Shown one piece after another: positions 10,379 to 41,345 of a stretch of DNA of 64,000 bases (its first letter is position 1; each line of letters starts with the position of its first letter). The DNA is from an uncultured Candidatus Binatia bacterium. Its GTDB lineage: Bacteria > Desulfobacterota > Binatia > UBA9968 > JAJDTQ01. Where the stretch lies: assembly GCA_965204205.1 (NCBI GenBank), contig OZ241976.1:1738755-1802754 (forward strand), given 5' to 3'. The position numbers were made by a program, and so were the translations under genes. The notes under the pieces are model-generated. The model did not search any database, was not told where the DNA came from, and saw only the letters and a list, made by a program, of their open reading frames with translations.

Positions 10379-11311
10379 ATGCCACAACTGATTCTGCGCC
10401 GCGTCGGCATGATGATCCTCATCATGCTGACGGTGGCGCTGCTTTTATTCCTCATGAACGAGGGCGATCCGCGGCTCATCGCCCGCAGCGTCCTGGGACC
10501 CTATGCCCAGGACCAGCAGCTTGATGCCTGGATCGTCCAGCATGGCTACGACCGCCCGATCCTGGTGCGTTACGTCGAATGGATCGGACGGGTGCTGTCC
10601 GGCGACCTCGGCGATTCCATCATCTACAAGCGCCCGGTCAACGAGATCTTCTGGGACCGCCTCGGCAATACCGGCATCCTCGCCGGCGTCACCTTCGTGG
10701 TCATGGTCGTCGTCGCTCTGACCCTGGGCGTCCTGGCCGGCATGAAGGAGGGCTCCGCCCAGGACCGGGTAATCTCGGTCTTCTCCATCACCACGACCTC
10801 CATACCGGAATATGCCAGCGCGGTGCTGCTGGCCTGGATCTTCGTCTTCGGGCTCGGCTGGCTCCCGGGCACCTCGTCCATGGTGACGGGGTTCAACGTG
10901 GTGGAGCTGATCCTGCCGGTGATGGTGTTGACCCTGTACGGTTTCGGCTACGTGGCGCGGATGACCCGGGCCTCCATGGCGGAAGTGATGACCAACCACT
11001 ACATCCGCACCGCCATGCTCAAGGGGCTGCCGTACCGCCACATCATCATGAAGCACGCGCTCCGCAACGCGCTGATCGCTCCGTTCACGGTCATCATGCT
11101 GCAGATCAACTGGCTCTTGTCCGGGGTGGTGGTGACCGAGTTCGCCTTCGGCTACAAGGGGTTCGGCGCGCTGCTGCTGGAGGCGGCGCTGCGCCGGGAC
11201 ATCTTCGTGATCGAGGCCTGCGGCACGGCGGCGGTGTTCGTGGCAGTCTTCACCCAGACCATCGGCGACGTCGGGTACACCTACCTGAACCCGAGAATCC
11301 GGTTCAAGTGA
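10379..11311 (+). CDS. ABC transporter permease (DppB/OppB-like)
   Basis: Multi-TM protein with a BPD_transp_1 signature. Start moved to MPQLILRR. Confidence 0.85.
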   Translation: MPQLILRRVGMMILIMLTVALLLFLMNEGDPRLIARSVLGPYAQDQQLDAWIVQHGYDRPILVRYVEWIGRVLSGDLGDSIIYKRPVNEIFWDRLGNTGILAGVTFVVMVVVALTLGVLAGMKEGSAQDRVISVFSITTTSIPEYASAVLLAWIFVFGLGWLPGTSSMVTGFNVVELILPVMVLTLYGFGYVARMTRASMAEVMTNHYIRTAMLKGLPYRHIIMKHALRNALIAPFTVIMLQINWLLSGVVVTEFAFGYKGFGALLLEAALRRDIFVIEACGTAAVFVAVFTQTIGDVGYTYLNPRIRFK

Positions 11312-14500: not shown

Positions 14501-15523
14501 ATGGGGAAGATCGACGCGACCGTTAAGGTAATCGACGCGGACGCCCACGCCCGGGACAACGACGACTTGGTGAAGCCGTTCCTGGGGGAGGCATTCCAGA
14601 ACCGGCGGCCACCGTTCATTCCACGGGAAACCTACGACCGCAACCTCGGCGGAACCCTCGGGCATGCGGGCATCAAGCACGAGGAACGCCTTGCCGCCAT
14701 GGACACGCAGGAAATCCACACCGCGGTCATGTACCCGACCAGCGGTCTGGGCATCGGCCGCATCCGCGAGCCCGGCTACCAGACACAATTGTGCCGCGCT
14801 TACAACGAGTTCATCGCCGACTACTGCAAGGTCTCCCCGCGTCTCAAGGCGGTGGCGAACCTGCCCGTCAATGCTCCGGACACGGCCGCCGAGGAGTTGC
14901 GGTACGCGGTGGCCGAGCTGGGTTTGGTCGGCGGCATGCTGGCGGCCCAGGGCCACGGCAAAAACTTCGGCTCGTCCGAGTACTTCCCGCTCTACGAAGA
15001 GGCGCAGAAGCTCAATACTCCGCTGGCCATCCATGCCTTCGGCGGCGACGAGCCCGGCAGCGAGATCTTCGACCAGTTCATTTCCATCCACACCACCGGA
15101 CACCCGTTCCCGGTGCTCCGGCAGCTCACCGGCATGATCTTCGCCGGCGTCCCCGAGCTGTTCCCCGACCTGAAGCTCGGCTTTCTCGAGATCGGCTGCG
15201 GCTGGATCCCGTACTGGTCGGACCGCATGGACGAAGAGTGGGAGAAGCGCGGCGCGGTGGAGGCCCCGGAGTGCAAGAAGGAGCCCAGCCACTACATCAC
15301 CAGCAAGAACGTGTACTATGGCTGCGAGCCCGACGAGAAGACCATCGGCTACGTGGTGGGGGAAATCGGCTCCGAGACCATCATGTACGCGTCCGACTAC
15401 CCCCATTGGGACATGAGCTGGCCGGAATCCGGTTCGCTCATCTGGGCGCGGGACGACCTCTCGCTGGAAGCCAAGCAGAACATACTGGGGGACAACGCCC
15501 GGCGCTTCTACGGCCTCGACTGA
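14501..15523 (+). CDS. Amidohydrolase-2 family metal-dependent hydrolase/decarboxylase (ACMSD-like)
   Basis: 340 aa with an N-terminal DADAH metal motif and amidohydrolase_2 fold similarity. RBS GGGAGAAG precedes it. Confidence 0.85.
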   Translation: MGKIDATVKVIDADAHARDNDDLVKPFLGEAFQNRRPPFIPRETYDRNLGGTLGHAGIKHEERLAAMDTQEIHTAVMYPTSGLGIGRIREPGYQTQLCRAYNEFIADYCKVSPRLKAVANLPVNAPDTAAEELRYAVAELGLVGGMLAAQGHGKNFGSSEYFPLYEEAQKLNTPLAIHAFGGDEPGSEIFDQFISIHTTGHPFPVLRQLTGMIFAGVPELFPDLKLGFLEIGCGWIPYWSDRMDEEWEKRGAVEAPECKKEPSHYITSKNVYYGCEPDEKTIGYVVGEIGSETIMYASDYPHWDMSWPESGSLIWARDDLSLEAKQNILGDNARRFYGLD

Positions 15524-15665
15524 AAGCAGCCGACCGGTTGCGATCCGTCCGGCTTTCAAGTAACTAACTGACTTCGTTGAAGGAATCCTTCAGTTGCCGA
15601 CGCCACGCGGCGCCGGCAACGGTCGCCTTCGGCGTAAATTCCACGTGATTCAGGGAGCACATTCG

Positions 15666-16415
15666 ATGGCTTTATCCGGTGACGCCTTTGTTCAGGAAAT
15701 CCAGGACGCGGTCCGCTCAAAGCACTCCAAGGACAACCCTATCATCGGGATGATCGAGAGGGGCGAGATCGACCGGGAGGCGCTCAAGGGGTTCGTCGGC
15801 CAGTTCTATCTCTTCTTCCCCAAGCCCTTCCCGAAGCCCATCGCCGCCATGCTCGGACGTTGCCCCGACGACCCGGAGCTGGAAAGGATGTGGATCGAGA
15901 ACGTGGTGGAGGAGGGCACCGGCGAGATCTCCGGCACCGACAGCCACCGGGGCCTCTTCATCCGCTTCGCCATGGCCTGCGGCTTCGAGTCCAAGGCCGA
16001 GCTGGACGCGGTCCAGCCGTTGCCCGAGACGTCCGCGTTCCTCGACTGGAGAGAGCTGCTGATGTATCAGCGTTCATGGCTCGAGCTTTTCGCATGCCAG
16101 GGTTTTTGCCTCGAAGGAACCGCCAGCGAGCGCATGGCCCGCATCGTCACCGGCCTGACCACCCACTACGGCTTTGACCGAGAGAGCGAGGACATCCGCT
16201 ACTGGACCCTGCACATGGGGGTTGACGAGGAGCACATGAAGGTAGGTCCGGAGGCGGTGCGGAAATACGCCGTCACCGAGCAACAACAGGAAACGGTACG
16301 CCAGTCCGTGCACAAGACCCTGGACCAGTTCTGGCTGGCCTTCGACGGCATCAAGCGGGCGTACGTGGACAAGGATCCGATTTACGCCGCCTGGCGCAAC
16401 GGGGCTTCGGCTTGA
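15666..16415 (+). CDS. TenA/PqqC/CADD-family heme-oxygenase-like protein with a putative diiron ligand set
   Basis: Start at MALSGDAF with RBS GGGAG. Candidate ligands are E-x6-H (GEISGTDSH), a Glu in CLEG about 56 aa later, and H-x3-D-x2-H (HMGVDEEH). This matches CADD-like spacing. Confidence 0.7.
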   Translation: MALSGDAFVQEIQDAVRSKHSKDNPIIGMIERGEIDREALKGFVGQFYLFFPKPFPKPIAAMLGRCPDDPELERMWIENVVEEGTGEISGTDSHRGLFIRFAMACGFESKAELDAVQPLPETSAFLDWRELLMYQRSWLELFACQGFCLEGTASERMARIVTGLTTHYGFDRESEDIRYWTLHMGVDEEHMKVGPEAVRKYAVTEQQQETVRQSVHKTLDQFWLAFDGIKRAYVDKDPIYAAWRNGASA

Positions 16416-16442
16416 CGCTCCGGACGCTTTAGGAACACGACC

Positions 16443-17093
16443 ATGGCCATGATCGATCTTTCGCGGATCATCTACGACGGCATGCCCAAGATCCCGGTGC
16501 TCCCGGACGTGCACGTGCAACGGTTCTTCGACCTCGGGAAGGGCCATCCGCTCAACGTCACCGAGATCAACCTGCCGTGCCACGCCGGCACCCACGTGGA
16601 CGCGCCGGTCCACATCGTCCCCGACGGGAAATCCATCGAGGAACTGGACCTCGATGCATTCGTCGGACCGGGTGCGGTCATCTCGGTGGAGAAGGGCGGT
16701 GGAGAGGAAGTCACCGCGGCGGATCTCGAAGGCTCCGGAGTCCCGGTCGACCGGGGCGATATCCTCATGCTGCACACGGGATGGGACGAGAAATTCGAAA
16801 GCGAAGAATACAATCTGCACCCCTATCTCTCCGTCGATGCGGCCGAATGGATGGTCGAGCGCGGGGTGAAGCTGTTCGGCATCGACTGCATCACGGTGGA
16901 CCTGCCGACACCATTGCGACCCAAGGGGTTCGACTTCCCGGTGCACCGGACGCTGCTCGGAAACGACGTCCTGATCGCGGAGAACGTAACCAACCTCGCT
17001 GCCATCGCGGGCCGGAAGAGCCGCATCATGGCGTTGCCCCTCAAGGTGCAGGGCAGTGACGCGGCCCATGCGAGAATCGTCGCGGAGGTCTAG
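16443..17093 (+). CDS. Cyclase-family protein (kynurenine formamidase-like metal hydrolase)
   Basis: 216 aa with putative cyclase / KynB fold similarity and an HxGTHxDxPxH-like motif (CHAGTHVDAPVH). Confidence 0.85.
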   Translation: MAMIDLSRIIYDGMPKIPVLPDVHVQRFFDLGKGHPLNVTEINLPCHAGTHVDAPVHIVPDGKSIEELDLDAFVGPGAVISVEKGGGEEVTAADLEGSGVPVDRGDILMLHTGWDEKFESEEYNLHPYLSVDAAEWMVERGVKLFGIDCITVDLPTPLRPKGFDFPVHRTLLGNDVLIAENVTNLAAIAGRKSRIMALPLKVQGSDAAHARIVAEV

Positions 17094-17169
17094 GCAAAAT
17101 TTGAGACGACTTCTCCCGGAAAGACGGCAACTTCCTGTGATTGTTATCAAATCCGAATCGAGGTGATGG

Positions 17170-18135
17170 ATGCTGGCAAGCCCCATCAGAGGAATCATCG
17201 GAGCCGCGCTGACCCCGTTCACGGACGACGGCAAGGTGGACTACGACGCCCTGGCGCGCGAGATCGAATTTCTCGTAGCGGATTGCGACGCCATCTCCGT
17301 GGTCGCCGTCGAGGCCTCCGAGTACACGGTGCTGTCCCTCCAGGAGCGCAAGGAAGTGATGCGCCACGCCACCGAGATCGTCAACAAGCGCGTGCCGGTC
17401 ATTCTCGGAGCGTCGAGCCATTCCATCGAGACGGTTCTCGACCTGTCGGACCACGCGGCCGCGGTGGGTGGCGACCTGATCCAGGTGCTGATGCCGATCC
17501 GCCCGTGGGGCGGCCAGCCGACCATCGCGGACCTGGTGCAGTTTTTCACCGAAGTGGCCTCGGTCAGCCCGCTGCCCATCGTCGCCTACCACAACCCCGG
17601 TCCGGGCGCCGACCCGCCGCTGGACGCCTTCGTGCGGCTTAGCGAGCTCGAGAAGGTCGACTACTTCAAGGAGAGCTCGCGCGACATCACCAAGATCACG
17701 CGCCTCATCGAGCAGATTCACCTGGCCGGCAAGGCCAACTACTTCACCACCATGCAGCCGCTGCTGACGACCCTCATGATGGGGGGCGCCGGCGCCACCA
17801 TGCCGCCGCCGGGAACGCGCATCGGCGCCAGGGTGGTGCGCGCTTTCCGGGAGGGTGACATCGACAGGGCGCGCTACTGGCAGCGCTGTTTCACGCTGTT
17901 TCCGGGAAAGTGGGGCGCCTACGGCCTGCCGCCGATCATGAAATCCGCCCTCAAGCACTTCGGTGTCGACATCGGCGACCCGGCCCGGCCTTACGCGCCG
18001 GTGAGTCCCCGGGACCATGCCCAGATCGGACAGTTCCTGACCCAGATCGGCATCCTGGGAGACGGCGAGCCGGATGAGGCGGCTTTTGACGAGGCGGCGG
18101 TCCAGCTCGCCCAGGACGACACCTTCCTCCGGTAA
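17170..18135 (+). CDS. Dihydrodipicolinate synthase/N-acetylneuraminate lyase family (class I aldolase)
   Basis: 321 aa with DapA-family similarity. RBS GAGGTGA precedes it. Confidence 0.85.
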   Translation: MLASPIRGIIGAALTPFTDDGKVDYDALAREIEFLVADCDAISVVAVEASEYTVLSLQERKEVMRHATEIVNKRVPVILGASSHSIETVLDLSDHAAAVGGDLIQVLMPIRPWGGQPTIADLVQFFTEVASVSPLPIVAYHNPGPGADPPLDAFVRLSELEKVDYFKESSRDITKITRLIEQIHLAGKANYFTTMQPLLTTLMMGGAGATMPPPGTRIGARVVRAFREGDIDRARYWQRCFTLFPGKWGAYGLPPIMKSALKHFGVDIGDPARPYAPVSPRDHAQIGQFLTQIGILGDGEPDEAAFDEAAVQLAQDDTFLR

Positions 18136-18141
18136 GGAGCC

Positions 18142-18348
18142 ATGTCCGGCGGCCTCTTCACGTGGATCGCGGAGCAGATCAAGGCCTGCTCCGATTTTCT
18201 GGTGCTGCTCCTGATCCGCGGCACCTCGCGGTTCGAATCGGAGCTGACCGACGAAGGACGGCAGGAACAGCGCATGTGGCGGGACCGGCGCATGCGTAGC
18301 CTCAAGGGGCTCGCCCTGCGCGCCAGGCGGCGGCAGAAGGCGTCCTGA
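18142..18348 (+). CDS. Small hypothetical protein (68 aa; hydrophobic N-terminal half, Arg-rich C-terminus)
   Basis: RBS AAGGAG lies 4 nt upstream of the ATG. GC3 bias matches the neighbouring genes, and the ORF is tightly packed between the aldolase and SQR genes. Confidence 0.45.
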   Translation: MSGGLFTWIAEQIKACSDFLVLLLIRGTSRFESELTDEGRQEQRMWRDRRMRSLKGLALRARRRQKAS

Positions 18349-18375
18349 CGACCGCGACCATCGCACGGGAACAGG

Positions 18376-19371
18376 ATGCACTACCACAACGGACGCAAGC
18401 AGATCGTGGTGCTCGGCGGCGGCAGCGGCGGTATCGTCGCCGCCACCAAGCTCGGCCGGACCCTGGGCGCGGACCACGACATCATCCTCATCGACCGGCG
18501 CGCCGACCATGTCTACATGCCGGCTTTCCTGTTCGTGATGGTGGGGCAGAGACGTCCGGAGGACATCACGCGAAGGCTCAAGCGCCTGGAGAAACGCAAC
18601 ATCCGGGTCCTCCAGGCGGAGATCCTGGGGATCGATCCCGGGCGCCAGCAAGTCATCCTGGAAAGCACCGCCATCCCCTACGACTATCTGATCGTGTCCC
18701 TGGGCCTCGAAGTCAGGCCCGACCTGCTTCCGGGTTTCGCCGAAGGGGCGCATCACCCCTGGGAGATGGACGCGGCCCTGCGCCTCAAGACCACCCTGGA
18801 CAACTTCCGGGAGGGGCGCGTGCTGGTGGGTGTGCCGCAAGGCCCTTACCGCTGCCCGCCGGCGCCATACGAAGCCCAATGGATGCTCGACAGCTACTTC
18901 AAGGAACGCAACATCCGTGACCTGGTGGACCTGCAGTACTTCACCCGGGAGCCCGAACCCGCCGGGGAGGAACACATGCCCTCGGTGTGGATGGACGCCC
19001 AGAGCAAGAAGCGCGACGTCACCATCCATTACGACTTCATCGTGCAGTCCATCGATGCCGAGCGTAAGCGCGTCAAGGGCCTCTACGGCTACGAGCTTTC
19101 CTACGACCTGTTGTTCATGGTGCCGCCGCACCGCCCCTCCCGGGTACTTTACGACTGCGGGCTGGCGGAACGGGAGACCGGCATCCAGGTGGACTACGAC
19201 ACTCTGGAAACCAAGTGGGACAACGTCTACGCCATCGGCGACAATGCCGACATGCCGGCCTCTAAGGCCGGCGGCGTGGCACACCAGGAAGCCGACGTGG
19301 TGGCGGACAACCTGGTGGCGGAAATCACCGGGGAAGGGGAGTTGTCCACACTGCACCTCCACACCATATGA
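18376..19371 (+). CDS. Sulfide:quinone oxidoreductase-like FAD-dependent oxidoreductase. The conventional ORF ends at an in-frame TGA (see feature 19369-19533)
   Basis: N-terminal VVLGGGSGG FAD motif, a CPPAPYE motif resembling the SQR Cys160 region, and a YAIGD second FAD motif. The 331-aa conventional product lacks the C-terminal membrane-anchor region. Confidence 0.85.
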   Translation: MHYHNGRKQIVVLGGGSGGIVAATKLGRTLGADHDIILIDRRADHVYMPAFLFVMVGQRRPEDITRRLKRLEKRNIRVLQAEILGIDPGRQQVILESTAIPYDYLIVSLGLEVRPDLLPGFAEGAHHPWEMDAALRLKTTLDNFREGRVLVGVPQGPYRCPPAPYEAQWMLDSYFKERNIRDLVDLQYFTREPEPAGEEHMPSVWMDAQSKKRDVTIHYDFIVQSIDAERKRVKGLYGYELSYDLLFMVPPHRPSRVLYDCGLAERETGIQVDYDTLETKWDNVYAIGDNADMPASKAGGVAHQEADVVADNLVAEITGEGELSTLHLHTI

Positions 19372-19533
19372 CTGCTCTCATGCGGCGCGGGACGCGCCGC
19401 CGCCAACCGCACCACCTACCCTCAGGGATGGCCGCCCTTCGGCGCCACCGACTCACGGTCCTGGGGCCCGTCCCGCATGATCTACTGGAGCAAGGTCCTG
19501 TTCGAGAAATGGTGGCTCTGGCGTTACTTCTGA
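19369..19533 (+). other. Putative UGA-recoded (selenocysteine?) C-terminal extension of the SQR-like gene
   Basis: The same frame as the SQR remains open for 53 codons after TGA 19369-19371. Its translation is LLSCGAGRAAANRTTYPQGWPPFGATDSRSWGPSRMIYWSKVLFEKWWLWRYF, ending at TGA 19531-19533. The W/K/F-rich amphipathic tail is typical of monotopic SQR anchors. Confidence 0.4.
19382..19400 (+). promoter_or_regulatory. SECIS-like GC hairpin downstream of the in-frame UGA
   Basis: GCGGCGCG-GGA-CGCGCCGC, an 8-bp perfect stem that begins 10 nt after the UGA. Its apical loop is about 19-21 nt after the UGA. Confidence 0.3.
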
Positions 19534-19550
19534 CGCCACTTCTGCGACAC

Positions 19551-19632
19551 GGCCTGTCCTGAGCCCTTCGACAGGCCTGTCCTGAGCTTGTCGAAGGGCT
19601 CAGGCCAGGCGTAACGAAGCGAAGACGAAGGA
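19551..19632. repeat. family-A MITE-like palindromic repeat (CCTGTCCTGAGC...GCTCAGG...GAAGCGAAGACGAAGGAC)
   Basis: Tandem/inverted copies of GTCCTGAGCCCTTCGACAGGC lie between the SQR-tail stop and the PDO start. Seven related copies occur elsewhere in the window. Confidence 0.6.
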
Positions 19633-19634
19633 CC

Positions 19635-20672
19635 ATGATCCTCAGAGAGCTCAACGGCGAGAGTTGCAAAACCTATCTGATAGCAGATGAGGGAAGGGGA
19701 TGCGCCGTCCTGGTGGACCCCCTTCACGCCCACGTGGACCGTTATCTCGCGGTGCTGGCCTACCACCGCCTCGAACTGGACCTCGTCATCGACACGCACA
19801 CACACGCCGATCATCTCAGCGGAGGCCCGCAGTTGCGGTTCCTGGTCGGATCGCGGTTCGCCATGCAGAAATGGGCGCCGAGCCCGGCCGTCGACGTCCA
19901 TCTGGAAGAAGGCGAGGAAGTTCCGATCGGTAACTTGGCATTGCGCGTCCTGCACACGCCGGGACATACCCCAGACGGCATGAGTCTCGTGGTGGAAGGC
20001 AACGTGCTCACCGGCGACACCCTGTTCATCGGCGGCTCCGGCCGCACCGACTTCGCCGGCGGCGATGCCGGCGCCCAGTTCGACGCGGTGACCCGGAAGC
20101 TGTTCACGCTGCCGGACGAGACCATCGTACGGCCGGGGCACGACTACCGCGGCAACACCACCTCTACCATCGGCCAGGAAAAGCGCACCAATCCCCGGCT
20201 TGCGAACCGCACCCGCGAGGAATACATCGACCTCATGAACAACCTCGGACTCTCGCCGCCCCAGAACATCCAGGAGGTCCTCCAGCCCAACCAATCCGCC
20301 CTCGGCACCGGGGATATCAGCTTTCCGGACTGGAGCGAGCTCAAGAAGGTCCGGGAAATCGACGTCCAGGGACTCCATCGAATGCTGGCGTCGGATACGC
20401 AACCGCTGCTGGTGGACGTGCGCGAGCCGGGAGAGTACACGGGCGAACTCGGCCACCTGTCCGGCAGCCTGCTCATTCCGCTACGCGAGCTCGTGAACCG
20501 CCTTGACGAGATCGACGAACACAAGGGTGAACCGGTGGTGACCGTCTGCCGCGCCGGCATGCGCAGCGCCACCGCGGCGGCCATTCTCGAGCGATCCGGC
20601 TTCACCGACGTCTCCAACCTTGCCGGCGGCCTGCTGGCGTGGAACGAAGCCGCGCTGCCGGTGGAACGCTAG
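19635..20672 (+). CDS. Persulfide dioxygenase (ETHE1-type MBL fold) fused to a C-terminal rhodanese domain
   Basis: HxHxDH motif DTHTHADH plus a rhodanese active loop CRAGMRS. Confidence 0.85.
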   Translation: MILRELNGESCKTYLIADEGRGCAVLVDPLHAHVDRYLAVLAYHRLELDLVIDTHTHADHLSGGPQLRFLVGSRFAMQKWAPSPAVDVHLEEGEEVPIGNLALRVLHTPGHTPDGMSLVVEGNVLTGDTLFIGGSGRTDFAGGDAGAQFDAVTRKLFTLPDETIVRPGHDYRGNTTSTIGQEKRTNPRLANRTREEYIDLMNNLGLSPPQNIQEVLQPNQSALGTGDISFPDWSELKKVREIDVQGLHRMLASDTQPLLVDVREPGEYTGELGHLSGSLLIPLRELVNRLDEIDEHKGEPVVTVCRAGMRSATAAAILERSGFTDVSNLAGGLLAWNEAALPVER

Positions 20673-40094: not shown

Positions 40095-41195
40095 CTATGC
40101 GGTATTCACCGCAACGACGTCCAGCCCGCCGTGGGGACCCGGCGCTGCCGAGGCGTGATACAACTGCCCGCAGGCGGCCTGTATGTCGTCGCCCCGTGCC
40201 CGGCGCACGTGCGCCTGGACGCCGCGCGCGCGCAAGGTCTCTCCGAACGTCTCGATGGCATGCTCCGAGGACCGGCGGTAACCGCTCCCCTCGTGGGGGT
40301 TGAACGGTATCAGGTTCACCTTGCAGCGAATGCCCCGAAGCCTTGCCGCCAGTTCCGCTGCATCCCCGGCGCCGTCATTCAGGCCGTCGATCAGCAGGTA
40401 TTCGAAGGTGATGCGCTTGCGCCGCGGCACCGGCAGGGAACGGCAGCACTCCAGCAACTGCGCGACGGAGTATTTCCGGTTGACCGGCATGAGATCCGAA
40501 CGCACCTCGTCCCGCACCGAATGGAGCGAGATGGCCAGGTTGACGCGGGTTTCCTCCATGAGCCTGCGCATCTGCGGCAGCAGGCCCACGGTGGAAACCG
40601 TGATCTTGCGGGGCGAGATGCCCATGCCGCTGCGGGCGTCGGTGATGACCTCCAGCGCCCCGCGGGTCGCCTCGTAATTGGCCAGCGGCTCGCCCATGCC
40701 CATGAAGACCAGGTTCGAGATTCGCGTGTCCTCCGGGCAGCGGCGCTGCACTTCCAGCACCTGATCCACGATCTCCGCCTGGCTGAGATTGCGCCTCAGT
40801 CCCATTCGCGCGGTGGCACAGAAGTCGCAGCCCAGCCCACAGCCCACCTGTGTCGATACGCAAAGCGTGACCCGGTCCGTTTCCGGTATGTAGACAGTCT
40901 CGACGACGGCGCCGTCGCGCAGACGCAGCAGGTACTTGACGGTACCGTCCCTGGAACGGTGTTGCTGCCGCACCGCCAGGCTTCCGATGTCGAACTCCCG
41001 CGCCAGCGCTCGCCGCAGCTCCCGCGGAACGTCGGTCATGTCCTCGAACGCGGTCGCGTGCTTCTGGAACAGCCACCGCCGTATCTGATCGGCTCGATAC
41101 GCGGGAAGACCGCGGGCGTCGAGCCATGCGCTCAACTCGGCATGGCCCAGGTCAGCGAGCGGGCGTCGGATATCGCTGGAGCGGACGTGTTCCAT
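40095..41195 (-). CDS. rlmN: 23S rRNA (adenine2503-C2)/tRNA methyltransferase RlmN (radical SAM)
   Basis: CxxxCxxC (CGLGCDFC) and an RlmN/Cfr C-terminus. True start at MEHVRSSD (41193-41195). The ORF-track start reads through a repeat (SKGSGRTG). Confidence 0.9.
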   Translation of the reverse strand: MEHVRSSDIRRPLADLGHAELSAWLDARGLPAYRADQIRRWLFQKHATAFEDMTDVPRELRRALAREFDIGSLAVRQQHRSRDGTVKYLLRLRDGAVVETVYIPETDRVTLCVSTQVGCGLGCDFCATARMGLRRNLSQAEIVDQVLEVQRRCPEDTRISNLVFMGMGEPLANYEATRGALEVITDARSGMGISPRKITVSTVGLLPQMRRLMEETRVNLAISLHSVRDEVRSDLMPVNRKYSVAQLLECCRSLPVPRRKRITFEYLLIDGLNDGAGDAAELAARLRGIRCKVNLIPFNPHEGSGYRRSSEHAIETFGETLRARGVQAHVRRARGDDIQAACGQLYHASAAPGPHGGLDVVAVNTA

Positions 41196-41208
41196 TGTCC
41201 AAATATGG

Positions 41209-41345
41209 CGTCCTTCGACTTCGCTCCGCTCAGGACGAACGGCTGCAAGGACGATGATTCCCGTTCGTCCTGAGCCCTTCGACAAGCTCGGGACAGGCTT
41301 GTCGAAGGGCCCAGGACAAGGCTTCGCGGAGCGAAGACGAAGGAG
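41209..41345. repeat. family-A MITE-like nested palindromic element
   Basis: TIRs CGTCCTTCGACTTCGC / GCGAAGACGAAGGAGG enclose inner GTCCTGAGCCCTTCGACAAGCTCGGGACAGGC palindromes. Confidence 0.65.

Follow-up and report, generated by a model that had tools for sequence, protein, structure and literature searches.

A predicted selenocysteine-containing sulfide:quinone oxidoreductase-family flavoprotein encoded across an in-frame UGA in an uncultured Binatia bacterium

A 64,000-nt stretch of contig OZ241976.1 from an uncultured Candidatus Binatia bacterium (hereafter the window, meaning the whole stretch analyzed) carries on its plus strand, at 18376–19533, a gene whose conventional open reading frame (ORF) is cut by an in-frame UGA. 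The explanation that we find very probable as a whole is that its product is a membrane-associated flavoprotein of 385 residues from the sulfide:quinone oxidoreductase (SQR) family, in which the C-terminal active-site Cys is replaced by selenocysteine (Sec). We predict with high confidence that the UGA at 19369–19371 is a Sec codon that occupies the C-terminal redox position (U332, within H-T-I-U), accompanied by a selenocysteine insertion sequence (SECIS) at 19383–19399. The evidence for this prediction is TGA at the column in 75 of 75 sequences, a translated tail behind it, an RNA-level constraint on the hairpin, a homolog with TGC in place of the TGA, and the alignment of the column with the catalytic Cys of SQRs. 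These results lend support to an earlier sequence-only reading of this DNA, which had proposed a Sec-for-Cys SQR. The most likely function would be sulfide oxidation coupled to quinone reduction via Cys160-Sec332, with the substrate, the quinone acceptor, and the roles of the conserved neighbors inferred.

The UGA column and the codons behind it are conserved

The conventional ORF begins with ATG at 18376 and runs for 331 codons to TGA 19369–19371. Beyond it, the same frame stays open for 53 further codons (LLSCGAGRAAANRTTYPQGWPPFGATDSRSWGPSRMIYWSKVLFEKWWLWRYF; 19372–19530) until the real stop, TGA 19531–19533. The coordinates proposed in the sequence-only reading for the cut ORF and its open extension were verified, as was a perfect 8-bp hairpin at 19382–19400 (GCGGCGCG-GGA-CGCGCCGC), which it had placed 10 nt past the UGA and whose first position is the 11th nt. 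The W/K/F-rich tail end that it described is present in the readthrough translation (...SRMIYWSKVLFEKWWLWRYF), and the distance from the YAIGD motif (residues 285–289) to the UGA, given there as about 42 residues, counts to 43. In this one sequence, taken by itself, none of the UGA, tail, or hairpin goes beyond chance; the G+C content of 66% makes stop-free stretches common, so an open tail within a single sequence is unremarkable. It is only the comparison with other genomes that makes them significant.

More than 100 homologs at 67–94% identity came up in a protein search, nearly all called at 329–331 residues and thus ended at the UGA column; P0006 (385 residues) and P0011 (383 residues) are full length. 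An exact look-up of the window protein gave no record; the most similar chromosome-scale records are OZ220712.1 (98%), CBDBFB010000001.1 (97%), and OY729432.1 (95%). A scan of one genome per species yielded 79 loci from metagenome-assembled genomes (MAGs) labelled Binatia, Deltaproteobacteria/Thermodesulfobacteriota, and Acidobacteriota, and 74 of these loci cover the UGA column. All 74, together with the window, carry TGA there (75/75), at protein identities of 65–98%. Exactly 53 codons follow the UGA in every covering locus, with a terminal stop that differs among them (TAG in 31, TGA in 25, and TAA in 18). Homologs that end at this place without a tail, which the sequence-only reading had raised as a point that would tell against it, were not found: the conserved tail lies behind the TGA in 74 of 74 covering loci.

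The tail is clearly translated and under purifying selection as protein. Its consensus reads …LLAFGAGRAAANRTxYPxGWPPFG…WGPSRxIYWAKxGFEKWWLWRYF, and the ratio of nonsynonymous to synonymous divergence (dN/dS, Nei-Gojobori) is 0.09 over the whole tail and 0.06 over tail codons 11–53, compared with 0.13 over the 28 codons preceding the UGA. The remaining two frames of the tail contain stops. Its sole Met (in SRMIYW) is replaced elsewhere by T, A, L, W, or F, leaving no conserved in-frame start. A tail-only search of 1.8 billion representatives gave just fragments of 43–53 residues, because the cluster representatives are themselves the truncated forms. No nonsense mutation, sequencing error, or independent gene downstream could give rise to the recurrent TGA, the 53-codon tail, and the low dN/dS.

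The column also has a Cys form, as the sequence-only reading had suggested looking for. P0006, encoded at locus L080 and 67% identical to the window protein, has Cys specified by TGC at this position and a nearly identical tail. The DNA that follows its TGC (CTC CTT GCA TTC GAA CCT GGC AAG GCG) lacks the hairpin and encodes EPGKAA where the Sec loci encode GAGRAA.

The more distant P0011 (64% identity) has Asn at the catalytic column (…LHDLNFISTGPGH…) and retains the tail (…KKWWLWRYF); this variant could lack redox activity or work by a different mechanism.

Several relatives show defects elsewhere in the SQR gene, including an internal duplication in L069 (…TRWGNVY…TRWGNVY…, about 10800–11000), frameshifts in L061 and P0005, and an N run in L073; the defect positions in L061 and L067 lie at about 10900. 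These are most likely MAG assembly errors, from long or short reads, and the TGA and tail are intact in the loci concerned.

A SECIS-like hairpin follows the UGA

The RNAalifold consensus of 73 distinct sequences reveals a 6-bp stem (19383–19388 paired with 19394–19399) closed by a 5-nt loop of the pattern N-G-G-N-C (19389–19393). This core, which encodes G-A-G-R-A-A, recurs in 74 of 74 covering loci, and in the window its stem lengthens to 8 bp (19382–19400). The stem lies 11 nt and the loop 17 nt from the UGA, and the centroid energy is −16.1 kcal/mol. The published model of the bacterial SECIS (bSECIS; Zhang and Gladyshev's bSECISearch, summarized in PMC13188914) allows a loop of 3–9 nt with G at the first two loop positions, a spacing of 16–37 nt, and a folding energy below −7.5 kcal/mol. 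The hairpin agrees with the published constraints in loop length, N1-G-G-N-N2 pattern, stem length, spacing, and folding energy, and it resembles bacterial SECIS elements in having a loop of 3–5 nt with the N1-G-G-N-N2 pattern, an upper stem of 6–8 bp, and a 17-nt UGA-loop spacing.

Synonymous sites in the stem are nearly frozen. The three four-fold-degenerate sites of the stem (C72/U2, C74, and C70/U4) have a mean entropy of 0.16 bits, compared with a mean of 1.54 bits and a minimum of 0.76 bits at the 17 other four-fold sites of the tail, and the two four-fold sites within the loop vary freely. Pairing is retained in 443 of 444 stem cells, each substitution being a C-to-U change opposite G. 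Synonymous divergence is 0.30 over the six hairpin codons versus 0.70 over the rest of the tail. Because the Cys homolog without the hairpin has EPGKAA, the invariance of GAGRAA reflects an RNA constraint tied to the UGA. The hairpin at 19383–19399 is thus under RNA-level constraint and behaves like a SECIS, which strengthens its earlier proposal as a candidate.

Family assignment and the catalytic column

Within the 331-residue part, Pfam detects Pyr_redox_2 (E = 1.7e-20) and FCSD_central, and the tail alone has no Pfam match. An N-terminal GxGxxG-type motif is present as VLGGGSGG (residues 12–19); its dinucleotide-binding core GGGSGG (residues 14–19; 18415–18432, plus strand) belongs to the flavin adenine dinucleotide (FAD) domain, and G14, G15, G16, G18, and G19 are invariant in alignment A1. 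A search of solved-structure sequences with the readthrough product, in which U was written as C, gave as best matches human SQOR, at an E of about 1e-29, flavocytochrome c sulfide dehydrogenases (FCSDs), and the SQR of Acidianus ambivalens, with the A. ambivalens match spanning the full length of the query (residues 9–382).

Both positions of the SQR redox pair (Cys201/Cys379 in human SQOR; Cys178/Cys350 in the A. ambivalens SQR) are retained, with one partner predicted to be Sec. Cys160 (PYRCPPAP; TGC codon at 18853–18855, plus strand), the first redox cysteine and presumed partner of Sec332, is invariant in alignment A1; its counterpart in the human SQOR alignment is the Cys within VKCAGAP (chain residue 161, corresponding to Cys201). 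Residue 332 aligns with the Cys of YTSCPLVTG in human SQOR, which is Cys379 once the chain offset is counted, and with Cys350 of the A. ambivalens SQR in a C-terminal fragment alignment. In the A. ambivalens SQR (3H8I), it is the C-terminal helix that the tail aligns with, where the fragment alone gives E = 0.03; a lack of similarity to SQR C-termini would, in the sequence-only reading, have counted against it. Its last part, at 19477–19530 (about residues 368–385), would form a W/K/F-rich amphipathic helix that presumably anchors the protein in the membrane.

AlphaFold2 modeling of the Cys homolog gave a confident core and a predicted helix at residues 368–381, with a tail pLDDT below 50; the confidence of the tail is limited by an alignment with only 2 full-length rows, and the Cys-Cys geometry is not resolved by the model. 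Foldseek with this model places the SQRs of human, Aquifex, Acidithiobacillus, and Acidianus at the top (TM-scores about 0.70–0.73), followed by NDH-2 enzymes.

The best NCBIfam match is SQR_III_seleno (NF049943; 259.7 bits, E = 4.2e-77), aligning residues 8–377 to model positions 1–381 of 406. By this match, the protein is nearest to the type III SQR group, not type I. The sequence-only reading had put the UGA at the redox Cys of type-I SQRs: the column proved to be that of the catalytic Cys (human Cys379, A. ambivalens Cys350), but the type did not hold.

Relation to known enzymes

A Sec subtype of type III SQR, recognized through NF049943 and its HxxU motif, was predicted in 2025 and is listed in a 2026 review (PMC13188914). 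Like that group, the window protein is predicted to be an SQR-fold flavoprotein with one Sec in H-x-x-U at the C-terminal redox column, and Cys-containing homologs exist for both. Against the published Desulfosediminicola ganghwensis Sec-SQR (…SDGHAVUFIESGFGKAY…), BLASTP aligns U on U, with H-A-V-U there and H-T-I-U here, but identity is only 30% over 390 columns. The C terminus of the window protein is shorter and different (…FEKWWLWRYF). The present clade is found in MAGs labelled Binatia, Deltaproteobacteria/Thermodesulfobacteriota, and Acidobacteriota, not in Desulfobulbales isolates, and its SQR gene is accompanied by a DHDPS-family gene and a small ORF for a likely partner. Sec-SQRs as a kind are thus not first described here; given the 30% identity and a score of 259.7 bits, where the curated cutoff is 525 bits, the present gene belongs to a separate, unannotated clade. 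None of the papers in the literature collection searched links Binatia with selenocysteine.

The A. ambivalens SQR (PDB 3H8I/3H8L) and human SQOR (PDB 6OI5 and others) share the two-Rossmann-domain FAD fold and the same redox columns, and the C-terminal amphipathic helix region of the former aligns as well. Unlike the window protein as predicted, both use Cys, and identity to them is 20–26%. A bridging trisulfide has been reported in the structures of both enzymes, and in the A. ambivalens SQR a cysteine links FAD covalently.

FccB (PDB 1FCD, 3VRD, 5N1T), the FCSD flavoprotein, shares Pfam FCSD_central and the redox-pair columns, with alignments over residues 6–332 or 6–340. In contrast to the window protein, FCSD is soluble and its gene is paired with one for a cytochrome c subunit. 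No c-type cytochrome gene adjoins the window SQR, whose neighbors are the small ORF, the DHDPS-family gene, and a dioxygenase-rhodanese gene; the ccm genes at 46–51 kb serve cytochrome c biogenesis and lie apart from it. The predicted C-terminal helix of the window protein is instead hydrophobic and rich in aromatic residues, as is typical of SQRs that reduce quinones.

At L080, a c-type cytochrome gene (1895–2326; Pfam Cytochrome_CBB3) lies downstream of the Cys homolog P0006, a flavocytochrome c-like layout; the Sec forms have no such neighbor.

Genomic neighborhood

The gene belongs to a co-directional run (14501–20672) that encodes an amidohydrolase_2 protein, a CADD/PqqC-like iron enzyme, a cyclase/arylformamidase-family protein, a DHDPS-family protein, a 68-residue ORF, the SQR, and a dioxygenase-rhodanese fusion. 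The DHDPS/NAL-family gene (class I aldolase-like; 17170–18135, plus strand; Pfam DHDPS) directly precedes the small ORF. It occupies the same upstream offset in 70 of 74 Sec-UGA loci, Acidobacteriota-labelled ones included, and in the other 4 the contig ends earlier. Its score falls under every NCBIfam equivalog cutoff. In Binatia-type clades, the cyclase-family and CADD/PqqC-like iron enzyme genes also lie upstream, and these too reach no NCBIfam equivalog cutoff.

The 68-residue ORF (18142–18348, plus strand) lies directly upstream of the SQR gene and has no Pfam or NCBIfam match. Its G+C at third codon positions is 0.89, and tblastn finds it in 71 loci as a conserved sequence of ~65 residues (…TSRFESELTxEGRxEQRxWRDRRMRxLKGL…). 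It is a separate gene in Binatia-type loci. Neither the kind of stop codon that ends it nor its reading frame with respect to the SQR is constant among loci, and a joining of the two through the TGA of the small ORF was rejected for this reason. At L050 and at the Acidobacteriota-labelled loci L049, L055, L056, L058, L069, and L076, the SQR N terminus carries the small ORF as an in-frame fusion, some of the fusions having an extra hydrophobic helix in front. Because of these fusions, the small protein is likely to be a partner that works with the enzyme.

Downstream, a persulfide dioxygenase-like (metallo-beta-lactamase-fold)-rhodanese fusion gene (19635–20672, plus strand; Pfam Lactamase_B and Rhodanese) starts 101 nt past the real SQR stop. 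Its match to the NCBIfam model for 'bifunctional sulfur transferase/dioxygenase Blh' is partial and below cutoff. Among 23 close loci (≥90% SQR identity), 22 have this gene directly downstream (within about 350 nt), and L059, the remaining one, has it on the same side at a distance of about 1.4 kb. That position lacks the gene in the 70%-identity clades, where the SQR gene adjoins TPR, bifunctional nuclease, and MiaB genes. The idea of the sequence-only reading that the SQR heads a sulfide-oxidation module therefore fits the close clade but not these more distant ones. The TPR, nuclease, and MiaB genes are themselves syntenic though unrelated, and much of the conservation of gene order may reflect relatedness rather than function.

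Proposed mechanism and alternative explanations

In the mechanism that we propose, the GC-rich hairpin 11 nt past the UGA would act as a bacterial SECIS and recruit SelB carrying Sec-tRNA(Sec), Sec would be inserted at position 332, and translation would continue for 53 codons to the real stop. Next to FAD, Cys160 and Sec332 would make up the redox pair, present either as a selenenylsulfide or as a bridging S/Se species. At this pair sulfide would be oxidized to enzyme-bound sulfane sulfur, and the electrons would pass through FAD to a membrane quinone. The W/K/F-rich C-terminal helix would hold the enzyme at the membrane, possibly helped by the small upstream protein, and in this lineage the dioxygenase-rhodanese fusion would further process the sulfane sulfur.

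Several results weigh against this explanation. Folding of the single sequence (65-nt region) is no more stable than that of dinucleotide shuffles (z = −0.24; 71 of 200 shuffles equal or better). The stem shows no compensatory double substitutions among the loci, and the case for the RNA structure is made by nearly frozen synonymous sites and wobble-only substitutions, not by covariation. The protein misses the curated cutoff of NF049943, and the published Sec-SQRs are themselves computational predictions. The dioxygenase-rhodanese neighbor is confined to the close clade, and the more deeply conserved neighbors (the DHDPS-family, cyclase-family, and CADD/PqqC-like genes) have no obvious link to sulfide oxidation. 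Finally, selA, selB, selD, and tRNA-Sec are absent from the 64-kb window and from about 1.4 Mb of flanks of relatives (79 loci). ARAGORN found no tRNA-Sec in the window or in 60 loci, Rfam gave no match in the window at the gathering threshold, Pfam identified no SelA, SelB, or SelD among the 45 called window genes, and tblastn with E. coli SelA, SelB, and SelD sequences against the window and all loci hit only the LepA GTPase. This search covered the window and 10-kb flanks of relatives, so we do not count it as negative evidence for the genome; the conserved recoding signature points to a Sec-decoding capacity in the organism.

These results bear differently on the alternatives. A real stop at the UGA would yield a 331-residue protein, functional or pseudogenized, perhaps with a separate 53-residue peptide; related to it are the nonsense pseudogene and the assembly or sequencing error that the sequence-only reading had kept open. 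Gene callers do give products of 329–331 residues for more than 100 homologs, and in a few databases the tail appears as very small ORFs of 43–53 residues. An error or a pseudogene cannot, however, recur at one column in 74 independent assemblies, the tail evolves at a dN/dS of 0.09 with no conserved in-frame start, and the truncated protein would be left without one of its two catalytic residues and without the membrane helix. A real stop is effectively refuted. Readthrough with insertion of a standard amino acid (e.g., Trp, Cys, or Arg, by near-cognate suppression), the hairpin serving as a generic stimulator, would account for the translated tail, as any readthrough mechanism would, and would sit easily with the lack of Sec machinery in the window and in the flanks of relatives. 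We nevertheless consider it very unlikely. The column is never TAG or TAA, whereas the terminal stop uses all three codons, and TGA serves as the ordinary stop of many window genes. Relatives have an essential redox Cys at the column, the close homolog has Cys there, the hairpin has the spacing and G-G loop of a bacterial SECIS, and a homologous family is already recognized as a selenoprotein at the same column.

A further alternative concerns the reaction. The UGA could encode Sec in an SQR-fold selenoenzyme that forms a complex with the small upstream protein and has another physiological reaction. That reaction might act on persulfides or polysulfides, involve selenide chemistry, or be a redox step connected with the conserved upstream genes for aldolase-like, cyclase-like, and diiron-oxidase-like proteins. 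Such an enzyme would suit the presence of the DHDPS-family gene and the small ORF ahead of the SQR in nearly every locus, the fusion of the small ORF to the SQR in the Acidobacteriota-labelled loci, and the restriction of the dioxygenase-rhodanese gene to the close clade; an identity of only 20–30% to any characterized or named SQR and the failed NF049943 cutoff would suit it as well. Yet both catalytic positions of SQR and FCSD are retained, every top match by sequence or by structure is a sulfide dehydrogenase, and the persulfide dioxygenase-rhodanese fusion is directly next in the window. The synteny of the unrelated TPR, nuclease, and MiaB genes means, moreover, that gene order may reflect relatedness. 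On balance we hold a different reaction to be rather unlikely and prefer the quinone-reducing sulfide oxidation described above. A broader proposal can be put forward only tentatively and is a little less doubtful: a distinct, widespread clade of SQR-fold selenoenzymes that gained or kept Sec independently of NF049943, works as a two-component system with the previously undescribed ~65-residue partner, is functionally tied to the DHDPS-family enzyme that is always adjacent, and has a role beyond textbook sulfide detoxification.

Implications for annotation and enzymology

The clade is widespread in soil and groundwater, but its annotation is that of a truncated protein throughout. In more than 100 database homologs, the putative catalytic residue and the membrane anchor are lost in this way. 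Because the homologs are called at 329–331 residues and lie beyond the reach of the NF049943 model, soil and groundwater MAGs of Binatia and Acidobacteriota are systematically mis-scored for their capacity to oxidize sulfide and their dependence on selenium. An SQR with selenium as the FAD-proximal nucleophile would offer a natural test of Sec-for-Cys replacement in persulfide- or trisulfide-forming sites, with the Cys homolog P0006 and the more distant Asn homolog P0011 as natural comparisons for enzymology. The fused or adjacent small protein suggests an undescribed accessory component of these enzymes.

Other features of the window

In a mechanical scan of the window for other in-frame TGAs, the coding-like cases were three pairs of adjacent genes that share a frame by coincidence; they were rejected as selenoproteins, since each gene has its own start and Pfam domains. 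They are a CADD-like/cyclase pair (15594–16415/16443–17093), CcmB/CcmC (47046–47861/47868–48626), and signal peptidase/CarA (33076–34194/34219–34881).

An 85-nt tRNA-Gly(UCC) reported by ARAGORN at 40526–40610 lies in a minus-strand ORF (40095–41285; 396 residues) for a radical-SAM, RlmN-like protein with the motif CGLGCDFC. Rfam matches nothing here even at E = 1, which makes a false positive probable.

A repeat search identified a 25-nt inverted repeat (19552–19610, no strand assigned; 92% complementary) in the gap that separates the SQR stop from the gene after it. A related copy lies at 41286–41312, with 3 mismatches in 27 nt where 0 such copies are expected by chance, and the pair looks like a dispersed REP-like palindrome or a terminator.

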